Source of the DNA: Malacoraja senta | Lineage: Eukaryota | DNA length: 64,000 nt | Direction of reading: 5' to 3' | Assembly: GCA_038087875.1 (NCBI GenBank) | Contig: CM075993.1 | Location: 4,838,001 to 4,902,000 of the forward strand | Shown here: positions 1 through 56,283 of the stretch, piece by piece | How the letters are laid out: every line of letters begins with the position of its first letter | How positions within the stretch are numbered: the stretch's first letter is position 1 | The notes under the pieces: generated by a model | What the model was told of the DNA's origin: nothing | The model's input: only the letters and a program-made list of their open reading frames with translations | Database searches by the model: none | Made by a program: the position numbers and the translations under genes

Positions 1-429
1 ACTCACTCACTCCCCCCCCCCCCCCCCCCCCCCCCCCCGCTGCCTTCAGGTAGAAGGTACAGGAGCCTGAAATCTGCAACATCCAGGTTCAGGAATAGCT
101 GCTTCCCCACAGTCATCAGGCTAATAAACTCAACTCAAACAAAACTCTTTTCCACTTTATCTGTTACTTATGTGTGTATATATATGTTCATTGGTATATG
201 GTCACACTGATCTGTTCTGTTCTGTATTTATTTATGCCTACTTTTTTTCTGTTGTGCTGAAGCAAAGCAAGAATGTCATTGTCCTATCTGGGACACATGA
301 CAATAAACTCTCTTGAATCTTGAATCTTGAATCCTTTCCCTGTCCGAATCATTGACGTAAATCGGACTTTGCTTTCCACGGATGCTGCCTGACCTGGGGG
401 CTGCTTTTCTTGTCATTTTGATTACGGTT

Positions 430-920: not shown

Positions 921-953
921 ATGACTCGACTCCGGTTTAAAGATGCCTTTTGG
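921..953 (+). CDS. PSTPIP1: PSTPIP1 coding exon 1 (MTRLRFKDAFW)
   Basis: ATG at 921, FKDAFW motif, donor GTGAGT at 954. Confidence 0.9.
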
Positions 954-3570: not shown

Positions 3571-5892
3571 AGTCCTTGGATATAAAAGGAAACAAATTCT
3601 TGTTGTTAGGTCCTTCACAAAGGAAGAGGGTTATGGTTGTTAGAGGTCAACCATCCCAACCTTAGAACATCATCGGACATGTTCTTCAAAGCTAACCAAG
3701 TACTATATCAATGGCCTTCCCCTCTTTCCATCATAACTTCCGAAGTGGGAATGTTCACTGATGATTCCAGACTTCATATCACAAGGTCATAAGTAATAGG
3801 AGTAGAATTAGGCCATTCGGCCCATCAAGTCTACTCCGCCATTCAATCATGGCTGATCTATCTCTACCTCCTAACCCCATTCTCCTGCCTTCTGCCCATA
3901 ACCTCTGACAACTGCACTAATCAAAAGTCTATTCAGAACTCCTCGTCAAGTAAAAGAGTCCAAAGTTGCATGCAGCAAAACTCATGGCATGGGCCGATGA
4001 GTAGGAAGTATCATACCTGTCACCGAAGTTGGAGTCAATGATCATTTCTAAGGAAGGAGTGGTTAGGCGACCACTCACCCTTGGCATTCAATGGCAGTAT
4101 CAGCTCTTAACCTGCTGCCCAAAGAGTTCGCCATTAATCAGAAACTGAACTGAAACTATGTACATCCTGTGGTAAGTGGCACCTCAAATGCTTTCAACTA
4201 TCTACAGGGCTCAAGTCAAGTGTGATTGTATACTCTAGGCTTGTAAAGATAGTGGAGCATAAAGAACACTGAAGAAGCTCAATGTCTTTCTGGGTAAATC
4301 AGCCTGCTCAAATGGTTCACAAGGTCACAAGTTATAGGAGTAGAATTCGGCGCACTCCGCCATTCAATCATGGCTGATCTCTGCCTCCTAATCCCATTTT
4401 CCTGCCTTCTCCCCATAACCCTCGACACCTGTTCTAATCAAGAATTTGTCAAGCGACTTTGAGTAAGCGACTTTGAGTCCTGAAAAGCGCTATATAAATA
4501 AAATCTATTATTATTATTATTAACTCTGCCTTAAAAATATCCACTGACTTGGCCTCCACAACTCTCTATGGCAATGAGTTCCACAGATTAACTACCCTCT
4601 GACTAAAGAAGTTCCTCCTCACCTCCTTTCTAAAAAAGCACCCCTGGTATTCCATCTACCGCCCTACACCTTCATTTATTCCCCCCCATCACCAGTGCGC
4701 AGTGGTTGCAGTGTATGCCATACGAACATGTACTGCTGTCATTTGCTTAGTTTATTCTGACAGTATGACCCAAACCTGGGACCTCTCCCACCCAGAAGTA
4801 CCAGGCCTTGTTGGATACTTGGGAGCACCACCACCCGCAGGTTCCCCTCCACCTCACAGACCATCCAGATTTGGAAATCTCGCCATTCCCTCTTCCTTCC
4901 AAAGGCGCTGTAGAAGTACCATCACTGGGGGGGACTCCAGCAGTTCAAGCAGGGAACATGCTTCCAACTTTTGAATGAGGATTAACGATAGGCGATGAAT
5001 GATCCCTGAACCTAGAGTAATGAACTTTTGTAAAAAAAAAATTAAAACACAAATGTGAAATTCAAGCCTGCGAGATTAAACAGTGATAGTGCTGAAACTG
5101 GAATTCAGCAGAATCTGTGGAACCGTATTGTCCCATTCATTGAATGATTTGGAGCAGATTCGTATTCCATAGCAATTTAGCATTTGGATATTCAAGGATC
5201 CAGATCAGATCTGATTTTGGGGTAGAACAGAGAAAATTTGAACTTTTTTTCGCCTTCCATCACAGTGAGGAATGTGGAGGAGTCACTGTGGTGGATGTTT
5301 ATGTTAAAATGTGTTTTGTGTGTTCCGTTGCTTTTTATTTGTATGACTGACGTGGCAAATGAAATTCCTCGTATGTTGCAAAATATACTTGGCTAATAAA
5401 GTATTATTGTGATTTTGATTGTGATTTAAAGTTATTTTCACCTGAAAAGTGGATTCTGTTTCTCTCCCCACTATTGCTGCCTGACCTGTTGAGTGCTTCA
5501 AGCGTAGTATGTGTTTGTTTTGGATTTTCCGCATCTGCAGTTTTTTGCTTCAGTTGGAAAATAAATGTGTTTCCTCTGCGAGTTGTCTCATTGTCAACCT
5601 TAAAAGAGCAGTGGTTTCATCCAATATTTGTTGACATCTCAGTTGTCGTTTCAATTCATCCAAAGTGGTGTGATGGATATTTACATTTACCTCTGATGTC
5701 TTTCTTAAGGGAGCAAATTGGTCATGTTTCACTCAACCTTTCCCTCTCTCTGCACGTTGCTACAACAGTGCCAATGTATCAGTTCCTACTTCAGCAGCTC
5801 TGTGCTTTCTCTTGGTTTGTCACTTATGCTCAGTTAGAGCAGTCACAAGCTTACTTTTTAAGCCCTGTGTACGTTCACTTGAGACTGCTTAA

Positions 5893-6140
5893 AGGGCCTG
5901 TCCCACTTTCACGACCTAATTCACAACCTCTGCCGAGTCTGCCCTTGACTCATACTCGCAGCATGGTCGTCACAAGGTCGTAGGAGGTCGTAGGAAGTCG
6001 TAGGTAGGTCGTAGCAGGCCGTGATGATAGTCGTAGGTACTCGTGGCATCAAGTAGGTCGGGGCATTTTTTCTAGTATGATGAAAAATGTCCACGAGTAA
6101 AAAAGGTTGTGTATTAGGTCGTGAAAGTGGGACAGGCCCT
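5893..6140. mobile_element. PIF/Harbinger-type MITE
   Basis: TIR AGGGCCTGTCCCACTTTCACGACCTAAT...; TAA TSD at 5890-92 and 6141-43. Confidence 0.85.
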
Positions 6141-7187
6141 TAAGTACAATTTGCAAGCTATCTCTATAAAGAAGGGCTCATAAACTCAACGGACTTGGCT
6201 GGTATCACGGTCAAATCCCCAGAGTTAAAGGTGCAACTTTCAAGAACGGGAGTGATAAATATTGTTGCCGAACATTTCATTTGGTGGGTAAAGGTTTTAT
6301 CTAAAATTTTCATCTGTGTTTGAAACCCAAGCAATACATCTTTGCCATGAAGTGAACATTGAGATGAGATAGACACAGGAGAAATCTGAAGTCTGGACAG
6401 TCTGAAGAAGGGTCTCGACACGAAACGTCACCCATTCCTTCTCTCCAGAGATGCTGCCTGTCCCGCTGAGTTACACCTGCATTTTGTGTCTATCAAGTGG
6501 ATATAATTATGAGTTTTACAGGATATTTGAAAAGATGTATGGATAGGAAGGGTTTTGAGGAATATGGGCCAAAAGCAGGAAAGTGTAACTTGGTCAGTAT
6601 GGACAAGGTGGGCCGAAGGGCCTGTTTTGTACTGTGACGCATATTGCAGTAATTGCTACATGGCTAACTACTGGGAACTACTCATGACTAACACTGGTTT
6701 CCACATACGGACGTATTCCTCAAACTAATTCACTTGCTCATTTGTGCTACGACCATAATCTAAATTCAAGCTGTTGTGGGGAGACCTTGCACCAATTACT
6801 TGATGATGCAAAAATGGACCAAATAATGTCTCGGCATCCATGTTAAAGATTTATCCTATTTTTGACAGTTACATAATGCTACAAAATACACTCTTAATGG
6901 GAGAGGTTCAGCCTCTTGAGACAGTTTCCCTTACAATTAGACCAAAGAAGAACCAAATTTGAACTCTCGCTTTCTCGATTCTGTAACCGTTGATATCGTT
7001 GCCCAATAAGTTAACTAGTTCCATTCAGAATCTGTTGTAATTGAGAAATGGTGTGAATTCCAAAGCCCCTTTGCCTTACTGCAAATAATGTTAATGGATA
7101 AATGTGTGCTACACAAAGAATTTAATGTGGCAAAGTTCCTTTAATGTATACTTTTCTAATGATTTGGTTGTAAGTGGCAAAAATCAA

Positions 7188-7712
7188 ACTTCTACTCAGC
7201 GGCTGTAGAAAGCATCTTGTCCAGAAACATCACAATCGCGTTTGGGAACTGCTCTGCCCGGGACAAGAAGGCTCTGCAGAGAGTAGTGCGTTCGGCCGAA
7301 CGCACTATGGGAACTACACTCACCCCTCTGCAGGAACTATATATCAGAAGGTGCAAATCCAGAGCCAGCAACATTATGGGGGGCCCCTACCACCCCAGCA
7401 ACGGACTGTTCCAGCTGCTACGGTCAGGCAAACGCCTCCGCTGTCATGCTGTGAAAACAGAGAGGATGAGACGGAGTTTCTTCCCAGAGGCCATTAGGAC
7501 TATAAACTCTTATCTCATCAGGGACTAACATACTGTACCAATTTACTGTTGTGTTGTGTCTTTTTAAAATTGCTGGGGGGTTTATCCTCACCAATATGTA
7601 ATTACTGATTCTGTTCTATTCTGTTTTGTAGTTTTTTTTGCACAATCCGCAATCATTGCCACTTTTCATTTCACTGCACATCTCGTATGCGTATGTGACG
7701 AATAAACTTGAC
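7188..7712 (+). mobile_element. Rex1/Babar-like 3' fragment
   Basis: ORF 7217..7528 LQRVVRSAER...HPSNGLFQLLRSGKR...SFFPEAIR. Confidence 0.75.
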
Positions 7713-8116
7713 GACATGCTCGCTCACAAATATTTGAATTGGGAATAGTGGATGAGTTAATGAAGTAGCCCGCTTGATTGGTAACCCATTGACCCCCTTA
7801 ACCTTCACTCACTCCACCACCCTCAATGGCTCCAGTGCCACCTATGAAGTGCACCCAGTAAAAACTAGAGGGCATCACTTTAAGGTGAGAAGAGCAAAGT
7901 TTAAAGGAGGTGTGCGGAATAAGTTATTTTGTACAGAGAGTGGTGGGTGCCTGGAACATGCTGCCAGGGCTGGTGGTTGAGGCAGAAACGATAGTGGCAT
8001 TTAAGAAGCTTACAGATAAGCACATGGATATGCAGTTAATGGAGAGATATGGAGAGAAAGAGATTAGTTTCTCTCCATATCTCTCCATTAACTACATATC
8101 CATGTGCTTATCTGTA

Positions 8117-9945
8117 AGAGAAAGAGATTAGTTAAAACAAATGTAGGTCCCTTGCAGTTAGAAACAGGTGAATTGATCATGGGGAACAAGGATATGGCGG
8201 ACCAATTGAATAACTACTTTGGTTCCGTCTTCACTAAGGAAGACATAAATAATCTGCCGGAAATAGCAGGGGGCCGCAGGTCAAAGGAGATGGAGGAACT
8301 GAGTGAAATCCAGGTTAGTCGGGAAGTGGTGTTGGGTAAATTGAATAGATTAAAGGCCGATAAATCACCAGGGCCAGATAGGCTGCATCCCAGAGTACTT
8401 AAGGAAGTAGCTCCAGAAATAGTGGATGCATTAGTGATAATTTTTCAAAACTCTTTAGATTCTGGAGTAGTTACTGAGGATTGAAGGGTAGCAAACGTAA
8501 CCCCACTTTTTAAGAAGGGTGGGAAAGAGAAAATGGGGAATTACAGACCAATTAGTCTAACATCGGTAGTGGGGAAACTGCTAGCGTCAGTTATTAAAGA
8601 TGGGATAGCAGCACATTTGGAAAGTGGTGAAATCATTGGACAAAGTCAGCATGGATTTACGAAAGGTAAATCGTGTCTGACGAATCTTATAGAATTTTTC
8701 GAGGATGTAACTAGTAGAGTGGATAGGGGAGAACCAGTGGATGTGTTGTATCTGGACTTTCAGAAGGCTTTCGACAATGTCCCACATAAGAGATTAGTAT
8801 ACAAACTTAAAGCACACGGTTTTGGGGGTTCAGTATTGATGTGGATAGAGAACTGGCTGGCAAACAGGAAGCAAAGAGTAGGAGTAAACGGGTCCTTTTC
8901 ACAATGGCAGGCAGTGACTAGTGGGGTACCGCAAGGCTCAGTGCTGGGACCCCAGCTATTTACAATTTATATTAATGAGCTGGATGAGGGAATTGAAGGC
9001 AACATCTCCAAGTTTGCGGATGACACTAAGCTGGGGGGCAGTGTTAGCTGTGAGGAGGATGCTAGGAGACTGCAAGGTGACTTGGATAGGCTGGGTGAGT
9101 GGGCAAATGTTTGGCAGATGCAGTATAATGTGGATAAATGTGAGGTTATCCACTTTGGTGGCAAAAACAGGAAAGCAGACTATTATCTAAATGGTGGCCG
9201 ATTAGGAAAAGGGGAGATGCAGCGAGACCTGGGTGTCATGGTACACCAGTCATTGAAAGTAGGCATGCAGGTGCAGCAGGCAGTGAAGAAAGCGAATGGT
9301 ATGTTAGCTTTCATAGCAAAAGGATTTGAGTATAGGAGCAGGGAGGTTCTACTGCAGTTGTACAGGGTCTTGGTGAGACCACACCTGGAGTATTGCGTAC
9401 AGTTTTGGTCTCCAAATCTGAGGAAGGACATTATAGCCATAGAGGGAGTGCAGAGAAGGTTCACCAGACTGATTCCTGGGATGTCAGGACTTTCATATGA
9501 AGAAAGACTGGATAGACTTGGCTTATACTCGCTAGAATTTAGGAGATTGAGAGAGGATCTTATAGAAACGTACAAAATTCTTATGGGGTTGGACAGGCTA
9601 GATGCAGGAAGATTGTTCCCGATGTTGGGGAAGTCCAGGACAAGGGGTCACAGCTTAAGGATAAGGGGGAAATCCTTTAAGACCGAGATGAGAAAAAACA
9701 TTTTCACACAGAGAGTGGTGAATCTCTGGAACTCTCTGCCACAGAGGGTAGTTGAGGCCAGTTCATTGGCTATATTTAAGAGGGAGTTAGATGTGGCCCT
9801 TGTGTCTAAAGGGATCAGGGGGTATGGAGAGAAGGCAGGTACGGGATACTGAGTTGGATGATCAGCCATGATCATATTGAATGGCGGTGCAGGCTCGAAG
9901 GGCCGAATGGTCTACTCCTGCACCTATTTTCTATGTATCTATGTA
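8117..9945 (+). mobile_element. CR1 LINE, 5'-truncated, RT ORF2 with one nonsense codon
   Basis: ORFs 8104..8484 and 8533..9852 in the same frame, split by TGA at 8482-8484 (expected W); KSPGPD, YLDFQKAFD, GVPQGSVLGP, FADD motifs; 3'UTR hairpin GGTGCAGG..CCTGCACC and (TCTATGT)n-type tail. Confidence 0.95.
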
Positions 9946-13237: not shown

Positions 13238-13437
13238 AAGAACTGCAGATGCTGGTTTAAATCGAAGGTAGACCCAAAATGCTGGAGTAACTTCTCTGGA
13301 GAGAAGGAATAGGTGACGTTTCGGGTCGAGACACTTCTGAATTCTGAAGAAGGGTCTCGACCCGAAACGTCACCCATTCGTTCTCTCCAGAGATGCTGCC
13401 TGTCCCGCTGAGTTACTCCAGCATTTTGGGTCTACCT
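13238..13437. mobile_element. Penelope-like terminal repeat, inverted pair with hammerhead motif
   Basis: arms are reverse complements; CTGAAGAAGGGTCTCGACCCGAAACGTC at 13344-13371. Confidence 0.7.
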
Positions 13438-14649: not shown

Positions 14650-14975
14650 GAAGGTAGACAAAAATGCTGGAGAAACTCAGCGGGTGAGGCAGCATCGATG
14701 GAGCGAAGGAAATAGGCAACGTTTCGGGCCGAAACCCTTTTTCAGACTGAAGAAGGGTTTCGGCCCGAAACGTTGCCTATTTCCTATTTTCTACCTTCGA
14801 TTTTCGATTTTCCAGCATCTGCAGTTCCTTCTTAAGCCTTCGGTCTGAAGAAGGGTCTCGACCAGAAACATCACCCATTCCTTCACTTTAGAGATGCTGC
14901 CTGCCCCGCTGAGTTACTCCAGCTTTTTGTGTCTATCTTCGGTTTAAACCAGCATCCGCAGTTCCTTCCTACACA
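14650..14975. mobile_element. Penelope-like terminal repeats (two subfamilies, nested) with hammerhead motifs
   Basis: inverted arms around 14745; motifs at 14747-14774 and ~14845. Confidence 0.7.
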
Positions 14976-15361: not shown

Positions 15362-15772
15362 GTTTAAGAAGGAACTGCAGATGCTGGAAAATCGAAGGTA
15401 GACATAAGTGCTGGAGAAACTCAGCGGGTGCAGCAACATCTATGGAGCGAAGGAAATAGGCAACGTTTCGGGCCGAAACCCATCCCCATCAGTCTGAAGA
15501 AGGGTTTCGGCCCGAAACGTTGCCCATTTCCTTCACTCCATAGATGCTGCCTCACCCGCTGAGTTTCTCCAGCACTTTTGTCCAAAGGCTTTTGTCTATC
15601 TGCAGTTCCTAAGAATAGACACAAAAACCTGGAGTAACACAGCGGGTCAGACAGCATCTCTGGAGAAAAGAACATTTTGTCTGAAGAGGGGTTTCGGCCC
15701 GAAACGTTGCCTATTTCCTTCGCTCCATAGATGCTGCTGCACCCGCTGAGTTTCTCCAGCACTTTTGTCTAC
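15362..15772. mobile_element. Cluster of Penelope-like terminal repeats with hammerhead motifs
   Basis: motifs at 15494 and 15681; inverted arms. Confidence 0.7.
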
Positions 15773-16430: not shown

Positions 16431-18042
16431 TATCAGTGTTTTTTGTATGCTGTCAAAAAGGTGCATGGACTGCAACACAACTCTGGAAATAAACCGATTC
16501 ACGAACTGGGTGATGGGTGTGGTGAGATATGAAGCAGGTATATCCCTACACAAGGGTCCCTTTTTTTTCTCTTGTTTTCCATCTCTTTTCTCATTTTTTT
16601 TCTTTTTTTTTTCTTCTCCTTTCTTTTTAAAGTAATTGTATATGGGTTTTTGTCTCTATTTATCTACAGGCTATCACTTGTTCACCCCTGGACTGCCCAT
16701 CGGGTACTCCAGAGGTTTACACATCACTACTTCCTTCACTCTTCACGCTTTCTTTTTCTCGCTCTCTCTTTCTTGCCCTACCTTTTTCTTGTTAAATTTA
16801 AGAGAGAAGTTGTACACAAAATGTATTTTGTCATATGCCGCGGTTTATACTACTGTACATTGCTTCTGATAAAAATACAAATAAAAAAAAATATTTAAAA
16901 AAAAAGGTGCATGGATAGGTGTGGATTCCGGTGAGGACCCTTCTTCAGACTGATGAAGTCTGCAGATGTGGGGGGGGGGGGGGGGGTTTGGGGGGAAAGA
17001 TAGCTAGACAGGTCACGACCTTAAACATCACCTATCCACGTTTTCCAGCGATCAACGGAGTCACTCCAGCACTTTGCGTTTCTTTCCTTGGTAAACCAGC
17101 ATCTGCAGTTCCTTGTTTCTACACTTGGATATGAAATAAAACTTGCAACGGCACTACTGCAAAAAAACACAGGTGCAGGAAAAATTGAGAAATTAATACT
17201 GATGACTCAGGGCCTGCCCGATGACATCTCGAGTTTCTGTACAGCTTTTTAACTAAATTGGAGAACATTTTACATCCTTGCTCGGAATATTATTTTTCTG
17301 GATCTCCACAGTCTGGTAAGAAGGCCATGATTTCCCTTTTACATAGATACATAGAAATTAGGTGCAGGAGTAGGCCATTCGGCCCTTCGAGCCTGCACCG
17401 CCATTCAATACGATCATGGCTGATCATCCAACTCAGTATCCCGTACCTGCCTTCTCTCCATACCCCCTGATCCCTTTAGCCACAAGGGCCACATCTAATT
17501 CCCTCTTAAATATACAATCGTCTCAAACAGTTTCTGCTTTCTGATCCTGAGGTTGTCCCCAATGGTTTAGTGGTCAAATGAATGCATCAAGCGCCACTGA
17601 ACTGTAGTGGGCGGAGTGGCCACAAGCAGCAACTCTGATCCCAGTCTCTCTAAACTCCTGCCAGTAACAGCGGACAAGCCATTACCCGTCCCTGACCTAG
17701 GTGGAAGCCACTTGCAAGCACCAGGCAAAGACTGGCAGGGAGGAAAGGTTGCACCGGCTAGGCTTGTATACATGGTGTTTCAAAGAGTGGGACAAGACAA
17801 TGTATTTTGAGGGGTGTATTCTGAGTTCTTCCAGATGCTGGTTTACACCGAAGATAGACGCAAAATGCTGGAGTAACTCAGTGGGACAGGCAGCATCTCT
17901 GGATAGAAAGGAATGGGTGACGTTTCGGGTCAGACCGAGAGTCAGGGGAGAGGGAGACACAGATGTGGAAGGGTAAGGTGTGAAAACGAGAAATCAAAGG
18001 GGACGAAGTCCAAGGAAAATGTGGAATAGATCATTAGACCCA

Positions 18043-18265
18043 TTGAACATTGACTTCTCCAATTTCAGGTAGTCCCTGCTTTCTCCTTCTTTCCCCTCCC
18101 CTTCCCAGCTCTCACACAGCCCACTGTCTCCGCCTCTTCCTTTCTTCTTCCCGCCCCCACCCCCTCAACAGTCTGAAGAAGGGTCTCGACCCGAAAACGT
18201 CGCCTATTTCCTTCGCTCCATAGATGCTGCCTCACCCGCTGAGTTTCTCCAGCATTTTTGTCCAC
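18043..18265 (+). mobile_element. Penelope-like element 3' end: ORF terminus, pyrimidine tract and hammerhead-bearing terminal repeat
   Basis: TTG AAC ATT GAC TTC TCC AAT TTC AGG TAG = LNIDFSNFR* (recalled as PLE ORF end), followed by CTGAAGAAGGGTCTCGACCCGAAAACGTC at 18173. Confidence 0.65.
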
Positions 18266-19166
18266 ATTAGACCCATTGAGGGGTCTTTACCGAGAATTAG
18301 AGAGAATGTTTCTCCCTGTAAACAATATTCTACAAATGGGGACATTTTGTTAAAAAAATAAAGAGATGGCCATTCAAGAGAGATGACTTTCATGTCTTTT
18401 CCGAGTTTTTGGAACCCTCTCAACGGATGGTGGTTGTAGAGTCCTTGAGTATTTTTAAGGCATGGGTAGATGGTCTCATGTTGAGGTCAAGGGGTGAAGG
18501 GTTACTAGGTTGAATGGTTACAAGAGGTGGGCAGCAATACAGACTGGTTGTATGGACTGTGTGAGCAGGGGGTGAATGATGAACCTAGTTCATAATATTT
18601 GTTTGAATTCTGTAGACTACCTTGCCATCATCTTCTTCAGGGCTTTTAGGGTAAGTCAATATGTATGCTTGTCCTGCCCAGGATGGCGCATGTATTGAAA
18701 ACATACAAAGACTTTGTGCAGAGTCCGGTTCAATTGTGGCCTAAACTCAAAAGTGCTTGAGGAACTCAACGTGTCAGGCAGCATCTGTGGAAGGAATGGA
18801 CAGATGACGCTTTGGGCCGAGACCTTTCTTCGGACTGAGTTCTTCCAGCACCTCGTCTTTTGCTTAAGATCCCAGCATTTGCGGTTGCTTGTGTCTCAAT
18901 TGCGTGCAGTTCTGGTTGTGCCTTCACAGGAAGGATGTGTAGGCTTTGGAGAGGTTGAATTTTACCGGAAAGCTACCCGGATTAGAGTGTTTCAGCTACA
19001 CGGAGAGGTTGAATAAACTTGGATTGTTTTCTCTGGAACATCAGAGGTCGACGGGAAACTTGATAGAAGAATGTGAAATTATGAGGGGCATAGATAGGTA
19101 GACAGTCAGAACCTTTATTCCAAGGTGGAAATATCCATCACTAGAGATGTCCATCAATATCCATCT

Positions 19167-22041: not shown

Positions 22042-22142
22042 TGTCCAGAGTTCACCAGTTACGTCGGGCATGAGGTCTTACTGGAACGGTTACGGGAAGG
22101 CCGAAAGATCTGCAAGGACATGGAGGAACTTCTGAAACTGAG
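22042..22142 (+). CDS. PSTPIP1: PSTPIP1 exon 2 ([33 protein letters not shown])
   Basis: acceptor tttcacag, donor GTAAGG; FCH motif [12 protein letters not shown]. Confidence 0.95.
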
Positions 22143-23516: not shown

Positions 23517-24305
23517 TTGACCCCCTCCCCTTTTAGTCTCCCCCATGAAAGAGACACAACCTGCTATGGTGGTTGAATAATCCAGTCTGAAGAAGGGTCT
23601 CGACCCGAAACGTCACCCATTTCATTCTCTCCAGAGATGCTGCCTGTCCCGCTGAGTTACTCCAGCTTTTTGTGCTATCTTCTGCCTTTGTCAACTCCTG
23701 GTTGAACATGGGATTGCGGGTTCAGTACCTCCATCGTTGCTGACTGCTGCCCACTTCCTAAAACTTGAAGGCACAGGCCGAAGGCGAGAGTGGAGAGATT
23801 CAAGAGACATCGGGAGGCACCTTTTTCACTCGGAGGGTATTCCATATCTATAATGAGCTGCCAGTGACATCTACAGAGGCGGGTACAATTTTGACTTTTA
23901 TAAGACATTTGATCAGGTATATGGATGGGGAGGGTTTAGAGGGCTAAAGGCCAAATCCAGGCCATTAAAACATACATCGCTGAGCAAGTTTCCAGTCACA
24001 CCCCGCCTCGTTTGATGTTTCTTGCTGCACATGTCCAACACTCTGACCCCCCGCCCCCCTTTTGGTCTCCCCCATGTAAGAAAAACAACCTGCTATGGTG
24101 GTTGAATAATCAAGTCTGAGGAAGGGTCTCGACCCGAAACGTCACCCATTCCTTCTCTCCAGAGATGCTGCCCGTCCCGTTGAGTTACTCCAGCTTTCTG
24201 GAGTAACTCTATCTTTGGTTTGAGCCAGCGTCTGCAGTTCCTCCCTACCCACTGTTATAACGGTTGATGGATGTGACTGAAAAAATGTTCTGTCTTTTTG
24301 CCCAG

Positions 24306-24380
24306 GGCAATAGCGGAAGAAAAGTACGGAAAGGAGTTGATGAATATTGCACGCAAGGCCGGGGGGCAAATGGAGCTGAA
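24306..24380 (+). CDS. PSTPIP1: PSTPIP1 exon 3 (AIAEEKYGKELMNIARKAGGQMEL)
   Basis: acceptor ttttgcccag, donor GTAAGT; phase-compatible. Confidence 0.95.
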
Positions 24381-24438: not shown

Positions 24439-27400
24439 TTTTCAATTTTTTTTTAAAATTTTTATTATTTTTTTATTTATTAGAAGTACATTACATTACA
24501 ACCACATACATTAGTACTCATCACTTATATCTTCTTACAATTAATGTACTCCGTTTGTTTTTTACACTAGTAAAAGGAAAGGATGAGATTGAAAGAAAGA
24601 AGAAAGTGAAGGAAAAAGTGAGAGTGTAGAAAATGTGACAACAAGAAAGAACGAAGACCCTATAAGAACAAAATTAAAAACAAAAGAAAAAGAGTTAAGA
24701 AATAGACCCTAGAAAAGAAGGAGAAAGAGAAAGAGGAAAAAGAGAGAAACAAATAGTTTTTATGAGCATTACGCAAATGGGACATACCAACTCTCCAACT
24801 ATCATCCCCCCTTACCTGACCTCAATTTTTTTTTAAGGTACCTTTGCACCCTATATTTGTAATAATTCTATAAATGCAGACCACGTCAGGTGGAAGTGAT
24901 CTGGTTTACCTGCCAGGAGGAGTCTTATCTCTTCTAGGTGTAATGTTTCGAACATATTTGAAATCCACATGTTTATAGTTGGTATTGGAGCCTTCTTCCA
25001 AAATTTTAGGATTAGCTTTTTTCCAGTTATTAACCCATAGTCTATTAGTTTCTTTTGAAACACATTTAGTTCTGGACTATCTTCCGTTATTCCGAAGATA
25101 ATCCATTCTGCTTTGGGTATCAGCTTTATTTTAAATAATTTTGTAAAGATTTTGAAAATTTCATTCCAACATTTTTGAATTTATGTACAGAAAACAAATG
25201 GGTGCGCTATAGTAGCTTCTTGGGATTGACATTTATCACAAATGGATGATACATTTGGGAAAATGTTATGGATTTTAATTTTGGAATAATATAATCTATG
25301 TAAAATTTTTAATTGTATTAAAGTGTGTCTTACATTAATCGAACATTTATGCACGTTTAATAAGTGTTCATTCCAACTTTCCTTTGAAATTTTAATAGCT
25401 AACTCTTGTTCCCAGTCTCTTCTGATACCCTCCGTAGATGGTATTTCTACATTTAAGATAATATTATACAAATATGATATTAAGTTTGCTGATTCAGCTT
25501 TTATCTGCATTGCCTCATCCAATACATCTGCTGGGTTATTATAATGATCTTTTGTATATTTTTTCAAATAGTCGCATATTTGAAAATATTTAAAATAATG
25601 ATTATTTCCCAGTTTATATTTTATTTGTAATTGTTGAAATGAAAGTAATTTTCCAGTTTCATACAAGTCACCGAACGTTTTAATTCCTAGTCTATCCCAA
25701 TGTGTAAAAGCTTTATCTATAATAGAGGGATTAAACGAAGGGTTATTAACTATGGGTGATAAAAGTGATAAATTTCTTAATTTTAAATTTTGTTTTATTT
25801 GTTTCCAAATTCGGATTGTGCTATGAATAATTGGGTTCTTATTATAATTTATATTATTCAGTTTCATTGGTGAGAGGAGGATCGCTCCAATGTTTCCAGA
25901 GGAGCAATCCTCTTTCTCCATTACAATCCAGTCCACTTGCTGGGCAGAGTTATCCATCAGTTGAATCATATTTTTAATATTTACTGACCAATAATAATAC
26001 ATAAAATTAGGTAGTGCTAAACCCCCTAATACTTTAGGTTTATTCAAGTGAGTTTTTTGTATTCTATGTGATTTATAGTCCCATATAAAATTAGTGATAT
26101 CTGAGTCCAGTTTAAAAAAAAACTTCTTTGGTAAGTATATAGGAATCGATTGAAATAGGTATAAAATTTGTGGTAGAAAGATCATTTTTATTGCATTTAT
26201 TCAGCCTATTAAAGACATCGGGAGCGTTTTCCAGAATTTAATTAATGTGTTTAATTTATTAAGTAGGGGATCAAAATTTGCCTTAAACATACCTTGATAT
26301 GTTCTAGTAATTTCGATTCCCAAGTATTTAAATTTTTCTGTAGCTATTTTAAAAGGGAATTTTAAAAGATGTGTTGAATCTTTCGGTTTTATTGACATAA
26401 TTTCACTTTTATTCCAATTTATTCTATATCCAGAAAAAGATCCAAAGTCTTCAATTAAATTTAATATAGTTGGTATAGTGATTTGAGGTTTTGTAATGTA
26501 CAGTAATATATCATCCGCGTATAAAGATATTTTATTATATGAATCTTTAGTATTATAACCATGGATATCAGGGTGTATTCTAATTTTTTCTGCTAGCGGT
26601 TCAATAATGAGAGCAAAGAACTGTGGTGATAATGAGCATCCTTGTCTATTTCCCCTTGATATTTGGAATTTCGAGGATAATATGTTATTAGTTAATATTC
26701 TAGCTGTAGGTTTATTATATAATAATTTGATCCATAGAATAAAATTCTCTCCCAGTTGGAATTTTTGTAATACTTTATCCATATAATTCCATTCTACTTG
26801 GTCAAATGCTTTTTCAGCATCCAGCGAAATAATTGATAATTCTTGATCTTCAGATTTGTGTGAGTGCATTATGTTGAGTAAACGTCTCATATTGTTAGAT
26901 GAGTATCTCTTAGGGATAAACCCCGTCTGATCTGGGTTTATTAATTTACTAATGTATTTACTTAATCTTCTAGCTAATGTTTTCGCTAATATTTTTTGAT
27001 CTGTGTTTAACAATGCTATAGCTCTATATGAACCCGGTTCTTCTAAATCTTTGTCTTTCTTAAGTATTAGTATAATCGTTGATTCCGCTAATGTATCAGG
27101 TAGTATTTGTTTTTTAAAAACATATTGGTACATTTTTTGTAATCTAGGTATTATTTTATCATAAAAGCTTTTATAAAATTCATTAGTAAATCCATCAGGA
27201 CCTGGTGTTTTTCCATTCTTTAGTGAGTTTATTGTATCTTCTAATTCCTTAATTGAAATTTGTGCACCCAATTCCTCTTGTTCCTTCAGCTCTAACTTTG
27301 GAAGATTACAATTATCCAAAAACTTTGTGATATTATTGGAATCAATTGTCGTTTTAGATGTATACAAATTCTCATAAAATTGCGCAAATCTTTTATTAAT

Positions 27401-27472
27401 ATCCTTCGGTGTTGTTAATAATTCCCCTTTATCTGATTTAATCTTTGGGATAGTATGTTCCTTTTCTCGTTT
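24439..27472 (-). mobile_element. L1/Tx1-clade LINE, 5'-truncated, frameshifted ORF2 (RT and C-terminal CCHC region)
   Basis: ORFs 26201..27367 (KTPGPDG, LDAEKAFD, GNRQGC, YADD), 25181..26185, 24851..25063; TSD TTTAGAATTCT at 24428-24438 and 27473-27483. Confidence 0.93.
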
Positions 27473-27483
27473 TTTAGAATTCT

Positions 27484-31138: not shown

Positions 31139-31997
31139 TCATTCATTGGAGTGCAGGAGGTTGAGGGGTGAACTTATAGAGGTGTATAAAACCATGAAGG
31201 GAATAGCTGGGGTGATTCCACTATTGTTCCTAGGGAGAGGAATCGAGAACGAGAGGGTGTAGGATTAATGTGAGATTAAAGGAAAGATTTAACAAGAACC
31301 TGAGGGGCAACTTTTTCCACACAGAGGATGGTGGTTATAGAGAACGAGCTGCAGAGGAAGTATTTGAAGATTGACACAAAAAGCTGGAGTAACTCAGTGG
31401 GACAGGCAGCATCTCTGGAGAGAAGGAATGGATGACGTTTCGGGGCGAGTCCCTCCTAGTAGTTAAGGCTGGTACAACATTTCAAAGACTTTTGGACAGA
31501 TACATGAATAAGAAAAGTTTAGAGAGATATGGGCAAAATGTGGGAAAATGGGGCTAGTTTACAAAGGGGCATTCTGTTTGGCATGGATGAGTTTGGGCTG
31601 AAGGACCTGTTTCCATGCTGAAAGACTCATTACAGGTTTATATGCCTGGATAGACACAAAATGCTGGAGTAACTCAGCGGGACAGGCAGCATCTCTGGAG
31701 AGAAGGAGTGGGTGATGTTTCGGGTCAAGACCCTTCTTCAAAAGGCCTTTTTCCTTTCTTCTCCCCACCCCCCATCAGTCTGAAGAAGGGTTTCGGCCTG
31801 AAACGTTGTCTATTTCCTTCGCTCCATAGATACTGCTGCACCCGCTGAGTTTCTCCAGCATTTTTGTGTACCTTCGATTTTCCAGCATCTGCAGTTAAAC
31901 AGAAAATGTTCTGGGTCTGGTCCCTTCAGATTGATGTTCTGACCTGTCCAATCCCTCCATAGATGCTGCCTGACCCGCTCAACATTCCAATATCTGC

Positions 31998-37344: not shown

Positions 37345-37501
37345 GTAAAAATGATGATAGAGTCATAGAGTGACACAGTGCGGAAACATGCCCTTTGGCC
37401 CAACTTGCCCACGCCGGCCAACATGTCCCAGCTACACTAGACCCGACTGTCCGCGTTTGACCCATACCCCTCCAAACCTGTCCTATCCATGTACCTGTCT
37501 A

Positions 37502-38081
37502 CGTTTCGGCGCCACTGGTTCGGCGCCTCCATTTATAATATCTGTACTCATCAGAACCCTATCCCTAACCCTAACGCTAACCCTAACCCGAACCCTAACC
37601 CTAACCCTAACCCTAACCCTAACCCTAACCCTAACCCTAACCCTAACGCTAACCCTAACCCGAACCCTAACACTATCCCTAACCCTAACCCTAACCCTAA
37701 CCCTAACCCTAACTCATCAGAACCCTATCCCTAACCCTAACCCTAACCCTAACCCTAACCCTATCCCTAACCCTAACCCTAACCCTAACCCTAACCCTAA
37801 CCCTAACCCTAACCCTATCCCTAACCCTAACCCTAATCCTAACACTAACCCTAACCCTAACCCTAACCCTAACCCTAACCCTAACCCTAACCCTAACCCT
37901 AACCCTAACCCTAACCCTAACCCTAACCCTATCCCTAACCCTAACCCTAATCCTAACACTATCCCTAACCCTAACCCTAACCCTAACCCTAACACTATCC
38001 CTAACCCTAACCCTAATCCTAACACTATCCCTAACCCTAACCCTAACACCCCAAAACGGCAGCGCCGAATGGTACCATTCC
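37502..38081. mobile_element. Putative non-autonomous element carrying telomeric repeats, 9-bp TSD
   Basis: ACCTGTCTA at 37493-37501 and 38082-38090; interrupts a minus-strand CR1 3' fragment. Confidence 0.6.
37555..38047. repeat. Interstitial telomeric repeat (CCCTAA)n with variant units
   Basis: ~490 bp of CCCTAA with CCCTAT, CGCTAA, CCCGAA, CACTAT and TCCTAA variants. Confidence 0.98.
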
Positions 38082-48102: not shown

Positions 48103-48688
48103 ATAGAATTGAATGCTTGGCTGCAAACAGGCTAATTTGCTGTTTCCGTGGTAGAATTGTTTTTCATACAACGGCCATCAACTAAATGGTAGCAAGTAGC
48201 AATGTGTCTGACGAAGGGTCTCCACCCGAAACGTCACCCGTTCCTTGTCTCCAGAGATGCTGCCTGTCACGCTGAGTTACTCCAGCATTTTTGTATCTAC
48301 CTTCGATTTAAACCAGCATCTGCAGTTCCTTCCTACATAACGTGTTGTAAATGATCTTTTCTGATGAATTTGATCATTCTGCGTCCATTGGAGTGTTTGG
48401 TTGTGATTGTCGCACCTATCATACAGGTGTCAGAGGTTATGGGGAGAAGGCAGGAGAATGGGGTTAGGAGGGAGAGATGGATCAGCCATGATTGAATGGC
48501 GGAGTGGATGGGCCAAATGGCCTAATTCTGCTCCTATCCCTTATGATCATCGTGGTAAACCAGCAGTCTGGGCCACGATGATCATAAGGTCATAAGAGAT
48601 AGGAGCAGAATTAGGCCATTTGGCCCATCTACTCTGCCATTTAATCATGGCCGTTGTGGCTAGTCCCATGCCAGAGGGTCATGGCCAC

Positions 48689-54502: not shown

Positions 54503-55624
54503 CATAGAAACATAGAAACATAGAAACATAGAAAATAGGTGCAGGAGTAGGCCATTCGGCCCTTCGAGCCTGCACCGCCATTCAATATGATCATGGCTGA
54601 TCATCCAACTCAGTATCCCGTACCTGCCTTCTCTCCATACCCTCTGATCCCTTTAGCCACAAGGGCCACATCTAACTCCCTCTTAAATATAGCCAATGAA
54701 CTGGCCTCGACTACCCTCTGTGGCAGAGAGTTCCAGAGATTCACCACTCTCTGTGTGAAAAAAGTTCTTCTCATCTCGGTTTTAAAGGATTTCCCCCTTA
54801 TCCTTAAGCTGTGACCCCTTGTCCTGGACTTCCCCAACATCGGGAGCAATCTTCCTGCATCTAGCCTGTCCAACCCCTTAAGAATTTTGTAAGTTTCTAT
54901 AAGATCCCCTATCAATCTCCTAAATTCTAGAGAGTATAAACCAAGTCTATCCAGTCTTTCTTCATAAGACAGTCCTGACATCCCAGGAATCAGTCTGGTG
55001 AACCTTCTCTGCACTCCCTCTATGGCAATAATGTCCTTCCTCAGATTTGGAGACCAAAACTGTACGCAATACTCCAGGTGTGGTCTCACCAAGACCCTGT
55101 ACAACTGCAGTAGAACCTCCCTGCTCCTATACTCAAATCCTTTTGCTATGAAAGCTAACATACCATTCGCTTTCTTCACTGCCTGCTGCACCTGCATGCC
55201 TACTTTCAATGACTGGTGTACCATGACACCCAGGTCTCGCTGCATCTCCCCTTTTCCTAGTCGGCCACCATTTAGATAATAGTCTGCTTTCCTGTTTTTG
55301 CCACCAAAATGGATAACCTCACATTTATCCACATTATACTGCATCTGCCAAACATTTGCCCACTCACCCAGCCTATCCAAGTCACCTTGCAGTCTCCTAG
55401 CATCCTCCTCACAGCTAACACTGCCCCCCAGCTTAGTGTCATCCGCAAACTTGGAGATGTTGCCTTCAATTCCCTCATCCAGATCATTAATATATATTGT
55501 AAATAGCTGGGGTCCCAGCACTGAGCCTTGCGGTACCCCACTAGTCACTGCCTGCCATTGTGAAAAGGACCCGTTTACTCCTACTCTTTGCTTCCTGTTT
55601 GCCAGCCAGTTCTCTATCCACATC
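54503..55624 (-). mobile_element. CR1 LINE, 5'-truncated, open RT frame
   Basis: ORF 54610..55623 (GVPQGSVLGP, FADD); (CATAGAAA)n tail. Confidence 0.95.
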
Positions 55625-56283
55625 TATACTGATGTGGATAGAGAACCTTTCATGTTGCAACCAACATGAAAATGTTCCCCACCCCTGCTCCAGCATTTTG
55701 TGTCTATCTTGAACATAATAATGAGTTGTGCAAAATACAAAGTGCTGGAGGAACTCAGCGGGTCTGACAGCATCCGTGGAGGGAATGGAGAGACAACGTT
55801 TTGATTGTTAACGTTATGAACGGTATCTCCATTTTACTCCGAAGAAAGGTCCCGACCTGAAACGTTGTTGTAAAAAATAACATTGATCAAGGAAATGCTC
55901 CATAGTTGGCTGTGGGCCAGAGGTAAACAGACAATGAGACTCACACAGACGACAGTGAAACCAGCGCAATGGCTAGGGTGGGCGAGCTAACTGCCAACTA
56001 TGGCCCGTTTCCTTCATCATTGTTACATTTTTGCATATCTTTCATTTATTTGTTCTCCATCTCCCCATATCGGCGTCTATATCTCTCGTTACCCTTTCCC
56101 CTGACTCTCAGTCTGAAGAAGGGTCTCGACCCGAAACGTCACCTATTCCTTTTCTCCGGAGATGCTGCCTCACCCGCCGAGTTACCCCGGCTTTTTGTGT
56201 CTGTCGTTAGTGTAAACCGTCTTTAGCAGTTCCTTCCGACACAACGAATTCCCAGCGGTGTTTTTGTTTTGTTTTGACTGCAG

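Follow-up and report, generated by a model that had tools for sequence, protein, structure and literature searches.

The window (i.e. the whole 64,000-nucleotide stretch of DNA analysed) carries PSTPIP1 on the + strand from position 921 onward, and all listed copies of the repeat described here are intronic. The earlier note had named PSTPIP1 as the host gene, and two exons do match PSTPIP1 in PDB (E 3e-9 and 9e-11). An FCH family search of the window gave no match because the FCH domain is split over exons, and the exons were located by translation. They are given below; the first is taken to be exon 1 from its motif and its location upstream of exon 2.

921..953, + strand: PSTPIP1 first coding exon (MTRLRFKDAFW, GTGAGT donor), placing 18043 in intron 1
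22042..22142, + strand: PSTPIP1 exon 2 (PDB 7aam/7aal, E 9e-11; AG/GT borders)
24306..24380, + strand: PSTPIP1 exon 3 (from translation and borders)

Several near-identical RT fragments, which we take to be CR1-like, also lie in PSTPIP1 introns (8485-9852, 54610-55623 and others), as does a presumably L1-like RT fragment at 25181-27481 (-). A telomere-like hexamer repeat tract (PNPN / LTLT in translation) occupies about 37400-37900, just 3' of an exon.

The repeat copy at 18043 is a 5'-truncated insertion (18044-18264) between 15-bp TSD copies. Its parts, together with a neighbouring stub of the pseudo-LTR (pLTR) of a Penelope-like element (PLE), are as follows.

17832..17960, - strand (antisense): separate pLTR stub from a different subfamily, which has lost most of the hammerhead core
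18032..18046, + strand: left TSD copy, 15 bp, its final 3 nt overlapping the element start (CATTAGACCCATTGA on both sides)
18044..18072, + strand: final codons and stop of the PLE ORF (GIY-YIG C-terminus, NIDFSNFR*), common to siblings L002-L015
18073..18172, + strand: pyrimidine-rich 3' UTR portion of the pseudo-LTR; its last bases, CAGT, form the 5' strand of helix I
18173..18201, + strand: minimal type I hammerhead motif, defective here; predicted cut after 18201
18202..18264, + strand: pseudo-LTR 3' of the motif, up to the first of two preferred 3' ends (~+92 from C3)
18265..18279, + strand: right TSD copy

The ORF end had been read as LNIDFSNFR*. The residues NIDFSNFR and the stop at 18070-18072 hold, but one base of the leading L codon comes from the target, and siblings read M. 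The 18073..18172 portion of the pseudo-LTR varies between subfamilies. The motif at 18173 carries an extra A in the GAAA box (GAAAACGTC) and falls outside the minimal PLE hammerhead descriptor. No empty-site allele for 18043 was present among the matches listed. At +48..+81 from C3 (e.g. 18222-18255), two mutually complementary blocks of the pLTR (ATGCTG / CAGCAT), which enclose a hairpin, are conserved; lying just 5' of the first 3' end, this is a candidate protein-binding or RT-start structure.

Other copies in the window were assessed with a strict descriptor (i.e. CUGANGA, one extra nucleotide, a 4-bp helix II and GAAA-CG-UH). Nine sense and no antisense copies were intact by this descriptor, which gave 0 matches in 50 Markov-simulated windows, and a profile of the whole family produced 65 matches (36 +, 29 -). 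All 13 sense coordinates in the earlier note proved correct when checked in the window, and its five antisense copies were found at most about 30 nt from where it had put them. Its count of more than a dozen intact sense half-sites was overstated, as only nine of the 13 are intact: 6402 and 16119 have a helix II mismatch, 43089 has an extra G plus a mismatch, and 18173 is described above. The two helix II subfamilies (U-A and U-G) and the N7 variants that it had described were recovered in the window, and its predicted cuts after 23614 and 56140 agree with the motif descriptor. Helix I is 2 bp long in seven of the nine intact copies, which are listed here.

13344..13371, + strand: intact core, 1-bp helix I, member of a head-to-head inverted pair
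14747..14774, + strand: intact core without helix I, member of a head-to-head inverted pair
15494..15521, + strand: intact motif, U-G subfamily, 2-bp helix I
15681..15708, + strand: intact motif, U-G subfamily; closest sense partner of 15494 (187 nt)
23587..23614, + strand: intact motif, U-A subfamily
24116..24143, + strand: intact motif, N7 = G; upstream flank common with 23587
31780..31807, + strand: intact motif, U-G subfamily
48208..48235, + strand: intact motif, N7 = C
56113..56140, + strand: intact motif, third upstream subfamily

The two motif copies with a common upstream flank (23527-23614 and 24056-24143) are probably a local duplication and not independent insertions.

The repeat had been attributed to a Penelope-like terminal repeat, and its identity as the 3' pseudo-LTR of a PLE is close to certain. 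Siblings of the 18043 copy were retrieved from 14 loci, several of which extend 5' into the GIY-YIG domain or RT thumb (Pfam PF01541 on sibling L006, E 9e-6, above the cut-off), and a sister family has a full-length RT + GIY-YIG parent. A search for RT fragments with the RT of one sibling gave 28,008 first-look candidates, among which the 150 scored matches were all 100% amino-acid identical. For intact parents, 20 RT-match loci with long open frames were retrieved. One of these (L040) contains a 1238-aa ORF between direct repeats that are 98.8% identical, with the motif in each repeat; its Pfam matches (RVT_1, E 7e-6; GIY-YIG, E 0.0015) both lie slightly short of the Pfam cut-offs, and it is 54% identical over 727 aa to a relative (P0005). 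Three further loci (L037-L039; G000:C562, C2340, C4:44.23 Mb) are head-to-tail arrays of a 3996-3997-bp unit. Units within these arrays are 99.4-99.96% identical, a pattern consistent with very recent activity. All of the intact ORFs retrieved come from the sister family (U-G helix II, ORF end EFSQFC*), which is 76% identical to the family of the 18043 copy over the C-terminal 173 aa, and the 18043 subfamily itself was followed only to the GIY-YIG domain and thumb. A tblastn search of the window with the parent protein detected no coding fragment at E <= 1e-3.

The parent protein contains the DKG and YIDD motifs, a CCHH in the endonuclease and, within the stretch that links RT to EN, CX4CXXC (CNRKRCNTC at aa 1105). 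In the available text of PMC8557442, a CX2-5CxxC linker is a criterion for Neptune/Nematis and is missing in Penelope/Poseidon. By this criterion, the element is on its predicted protein a Neptune/Nematis-type EN+ PLE and not a Penelope/Poseidon. The anatomy of EN+ PLEs was also found (i.e. partial-tandem pseudo-LTRs, inverted 5'-truncated copies, an optional tail and a TSD). Residues about 163-511 of the L040 ORF form an in-frame Pro/Ser/Thr-rich stretch with internal tandem repeats, missing from an 889-aa relative, which recalls the Asn-rich inserts of rotifer Penelope ORFs (PMC3846280). The pLTR also contains the start of a 41-codon upstream ORF (L040:3516-3641), which extends over the main ATG in a different frame, and the main start carries a donor-like AAG/GTATGC.

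The ends of insertions were examined in a non-random 864-kb sample (464 kb around the window and eight 50-kb blocks), which yielded 597 profile matches and 67 intact motifs; a very rough extrapolation to the 1.94-Gb genome gives 10^6 fragments and 10^5 intact motifs. Among copies anchored 3' of the motif, 131/355 extend at least as far as C3 and 12 break off at +28/+29; the latter are mostly internal deletions or inversion joints, although two could be true cut-site starts. TSDs were counted at a length of at least 10 nt and with a canonical 3' end, TSDs of 8-9 nt being unreliable (6-9 chance matches, mismatched pairs). None of the 23 TSD-bounded copies has its 5' end at the cut, 20 having it at +4 or further upstream, and their 3' ends fall at two fixed positions about 35 nt apart (+88..96 in 15 copies, +125..129 in eight). 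A head-to-head inverted partner was present for 30 of the 113 copies reaching C3. Of the 83 non-inverted copies, 56 have unique upstream DNA, mostly matching for just 1-7 nt, and five of the 27 with 'shared upstream' sequence are other repeat arms and not pLTR read-through. Across the 56 unique flanks, the upstream match from -1 to -5 is T 53, G 47, A 36, C 27 and T 27. The 15 joints listed, of 838, all enter at -4 to 0; in one joint, +88 is connected back to the base that directly follows the cut.

Long copies of the young family were measured on the best 30 (40 scored of 1365 candidates), two of which are units of one array; L041 and L048 were left out. Twenty-four of the 30 run at least 28 nt past C3, through the upstream motif; none starts at +28 and one starts at -5. 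Starts of short copies cluster a few nucleotides 5' of the core. On this record, the hammerhead cut does not set the element ends.

The reading that we hold with good confidence is that the repeats are 5'-truncated PLE ends, that the pLTR hammerhead likely cuts only with the element protein and that the PSTPIP1 introns are likely uncut. The endonuclease would nick DNA, and the RT would start inside the RNA at +88..96 or +125..132 from C3, as in the anole element, and read through the hammerhead on RNA that is either uncut or cut and re-joined. Most copies would stop 1-7 nt past the core, giving 95-135-bp stubs, and this stop would most likely be the RNA 5' end near the initiator-like TCAGTC, a sequence resembling the initiator consensus. 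Inverted pairs may come from fold-back at the TCAG-T-CTGA palindrome, and long copies from templates of more than unit length. The stubs would decay once inserted, those in introns being likely passengers, and the hammerhead, which is kept between master elements, would be expected to act, with protein, on the element's own RNA. A rotifer pLTR has an Inr-like TCACT, with palindromes at inverted junctions (PMC3846280), and an internal TATA-less promoter is described in PMC2377424. As far as the available text of PMC4209133 goes, minimal PLE hammerheads have low activity, a tested motif being inactive as a monomer and of low activity as a dimer. For the anole element, the available text of PMC11167929 describes protein-assisted cleavage with no cutting by the hammerhead without protein, uncut RNA as the main template, RNA-seq without ends at the site and hammerhead mutants that left in vitro insertion unchanged.

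Two steps of this cycle have competitors. The cluster of 5' ends may possibly reflect an RT stall or a splice acceptor instead of an RNA start, because long copies, which should also start at an RNA start at -3, do not start at TCAGTC (just 1/30 does), and the distant relatives described below lack the TCAGT element. A pyrimidine tract and CAG directly precede helix I (TCTGA) in three reference subfamilies, helix I is where the Penelope intron of D. virilis ends (PMC4209133, available text), some TSD-bounded copies have 9-30 nt of unrelated sequence 5' of GT, and the C-rich tract could stall an RT. However, several TSDs adjoin the element at -2 to -7 without exon-like sequence between, the match fades gradually from -1 to -5 instead of halting at AG, and the 56 unique flanks have no common upstream exon. 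A circular intermediate, as already proposed in the available text of PMC4209133, appears doubtful. Tandem transcripts would be cut at two hammerheads, ligated to a 4.0-kb circle and reverse-transcribed for more than one round, and it is similarly doubtful that the lack of cut-site 5' ends in the DNA record reflects a ligated junction that restores the motif. The 24/30 long copies exceeding unit length, the tandem units of 3996-3997 bp and the retention of the motif between masters would fit such circles, but read-through of tandem loci leaves the same DNA record, the stop just 5' of the core is left unaccounted for and in vitro insertion was unaffected in the anole hammerhead mutants (PMC11167929, available text).

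The motif itself was evaluated as a hammerhead. The minimal PLE hammerhead descriptor matches the nine window copies and both L040 repeats. Rfam hammerhead covariance models gave no match at the gathering threshold in the window, and none at E <= 10 against L040 and L174. Type II or III topology was ruled out, there being no room for a stem-loop I 5' of CUGA. Among six subfamily consensuses, built from 244/257 full-cover copies, 0/11 core positions vary as compared to 18/73 other positions (p 0.11); the variation is located in loop II, the U-A/U-G pair, N17 and N1.1, and helix changes inside this genome are one-sided only. Base-matched per-copy decay was lower in the core than in the flanks for A only, and blocks downstream are conserved like the core. 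A raw per-copy difference between core and flank (4.5% vs 6.4%) was dropped, as it mostly vanishes with base matching and the copies were motif-selected.

Distant relatives (34-61% amino-acid identity) were drawn from metagenome contigs at 80 loci, of which 15 without 150 nt downstream were left out. In 28 of the remaining 65 loci, a sense motif lies 65-142 nt 3' of the ORF, with no antisense or shuffled matches; these 28 come nearly all from one assembly and count as one independent family. Both helices show a double change, T-A vs C-G for helix II and G-C vs C-G for helix I, which has 3 bp there and 2 bp here. Only in comparison with this distant family is core conservation in excess of the flanks clear. 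Retention of the core in these relatives, together with compensatory changes in both helices, supports the hammerhead fold, and the minimal hammerhead that the earlier note had placed in a Penelope-like terminal repeat is borne out by this covariation and by the motif in both repeats of L040. The extra A and 2-bp stem I, raised there as caveats, are not defects, as an extra nucleotide, a palindromic insert and a 2-bp helix I are described for PLE hammerheads in the available text of PMC4209133. A chance look-alike, or a dead relic without a ribozyme role, is a very improbable reading of the motif: the silent Rfam models, the helix I of just 2 bp, the equally conserved downstream blocks and the A-only difference in decay would suit such a relic, but relatives this distant keep position and architecture with double compensatory changes, and intact young elements have the motif in both repeats.

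The earlier note had further suggested that sense copies in PSTPIP1 pre-mRNA dimerise via the ACGU palindrome to cut introns or to free retrozyme-like RNAs. Nine intact sense copies stand against no intact antisense copy (p 0.004, post hoc, for copies that are clustered, duplicated and not independent), two pairs have spacings of 187 and 529 nt, the geometry would allow the dimer topology and weak cleavage is described for S. mansoni constructs made as dimers or trimers (PMC4209133, available text). In a folding model without tertiary core energy and uncalibrated, however, forming the active dimer costs 25.7 and 26.1 kcal/mol relative to the ensemble in the two closest sense pairs, and isolated 42-mers favour a competing fold (-7.2/-8.9 kcal/mol per monomer, as compared to -6.1/-7.1 for the active dimer). 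The energy of a 14747/15494 dimer was discarded because 14747 lacks helix I. Intact sense copies are not depleted. Their excess does not recur among all matches in the window (36:29, p 0.46) or in the flanking 400 kb (21:17, by strand). Neither part of the suggestion is supported, as the dimer fold is strongly disfavoured in the model and the ends lie off the cut site, and the copies are dispersed, TSD-bounded stubs, whereas retrozymes form tandem arrays and are reported to be excluded from introns (bioRxiv 10.64898/2026.07.22.740005, available text). Unaided intron cutting is thus unlikely on the modelled energies, and cutting or RNA release by unaided dimers is a very improbable account of these copies; low or protein-assisted cutting may occur. 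The 9:0 sense excess in PSTPIP1 counts against the favoured reading of uncut passenger stubs, which leaves it unexplained.

Given an active parent family and intact motifs numbering some 10^5 genome-wide, a further idea is that the element protein could, in any place where it is expressed, enable host pre-mRNAs to be cleaved at the stubs in their introns. We regard this as a long shot; if true, it would amount to a transposon-switched, genome-wide RNA-cutting system, of which the 9:0 sense bias in PSTPIP1 would be the trace.

A neighbouring short repeat provides a contrast. At 53491-53299 (-), the window contains an about 190-bp SINE-like repeat headed by an HDV-like ribozyme, which gave a full-model match to the Rfam mammalian CPEB3 ribozyme (40.1 bits, cut-off 35). 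There were 1948 first-look candidates for this repeat in the genome. Nine of nine siblings (L248-L256; top matches, biased to full length) begin exactly at the predicted cut site. The wider sample gave three matches, the copy in the window among them, with starts at positions 1, 3 and 11. A (GAA)n tail was present in all six siblings with ends displayed, and TSDs in several. The parent LINE is presumably RTE-type, which is a guess. A literature search (most subscription papers and Repbase being outside its scope) found no paper on the HDV-headed repeat, which may bear on the origin of CPEB3-like ribozymes. The insertions thus record that the hammerhead cut does not define PLE ends and that the HDV-type ribozyme does define those of the short repeat, a contrast that bears on the function of PLE hammerheads.

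The association of PLEs with minimal hammerheads is ordinary in kind, having been published since 2014 (PMC4209133, available text). A literature search of the same scope found no paper on this PLE family in cartilaginous fish, and the supplements of PMC4209133 that were searched contain no shark or skate terms. According to the available text of PMC11167929, the sole PLE purified in vitro so far is a Poseidon. The value of the present family, which is young, intact and of Neptune/Nematis type, is as material: its fragments, very roughly a million in number, log RT starts and stops.

Among known systems, the motif resembles the minimal PLE hammerheads of D. virilis type (PMC4209133, available text) in its presence in both pseudo-LTRs, the extra nucleotide between 9 and 10.1, the G10.1-C11.1 pair, the palindromic 2-nt insert in helix III and the 2-bp helix I, and metazoan PLE hammerheads in occurring mostly as single dispersed copies. 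Helix II differs, with 4 bp and a tetraloop here vs 6-8 bp in the fly and schistosome cases of that source, and copy number appears to be ~10x that given there for coelacanth and Xenopus (4,000-9,000), a comparison across different descriptors and from a rough extrapolation. Neptune/Nematis EN+ PLEs (PMC8557442, available text) likewise have a single ORF with a C-terminal GIY-YIG, CCHH, CX2-5CxxC and DKG, partial tandems, inverted 5'-truncated copies and an optional 30-40-bp tail; here the 1238-aa ORF includes the in-frame Pro-rich stretch of about 350 aa. Non-LTR retrozymes (bioRxiv 10.64898/2026.07.22.740005, available text) are also non-coding, carry a type I hammerhead and are related to PLE pLTRs, but consist of tandem repeats with one motif per unit; the window stubs are TSD-bounded and dispersed, or head-to-head, and no head-to-tail tandem units with a motif each were found among them. 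The Poseidon PAc of Anolis carolinensis (PMC11167929, available text) shares two internal RT start sites that define the tail, a hammerhead in the pLTR and uncut RNA as template. PAc belongs to the Penelope/Poseidon clade, without the linker motif present here, and its hammerhead overlaps the ORF start, whereas here the ORF begins 136 nt 3' of the cut site.
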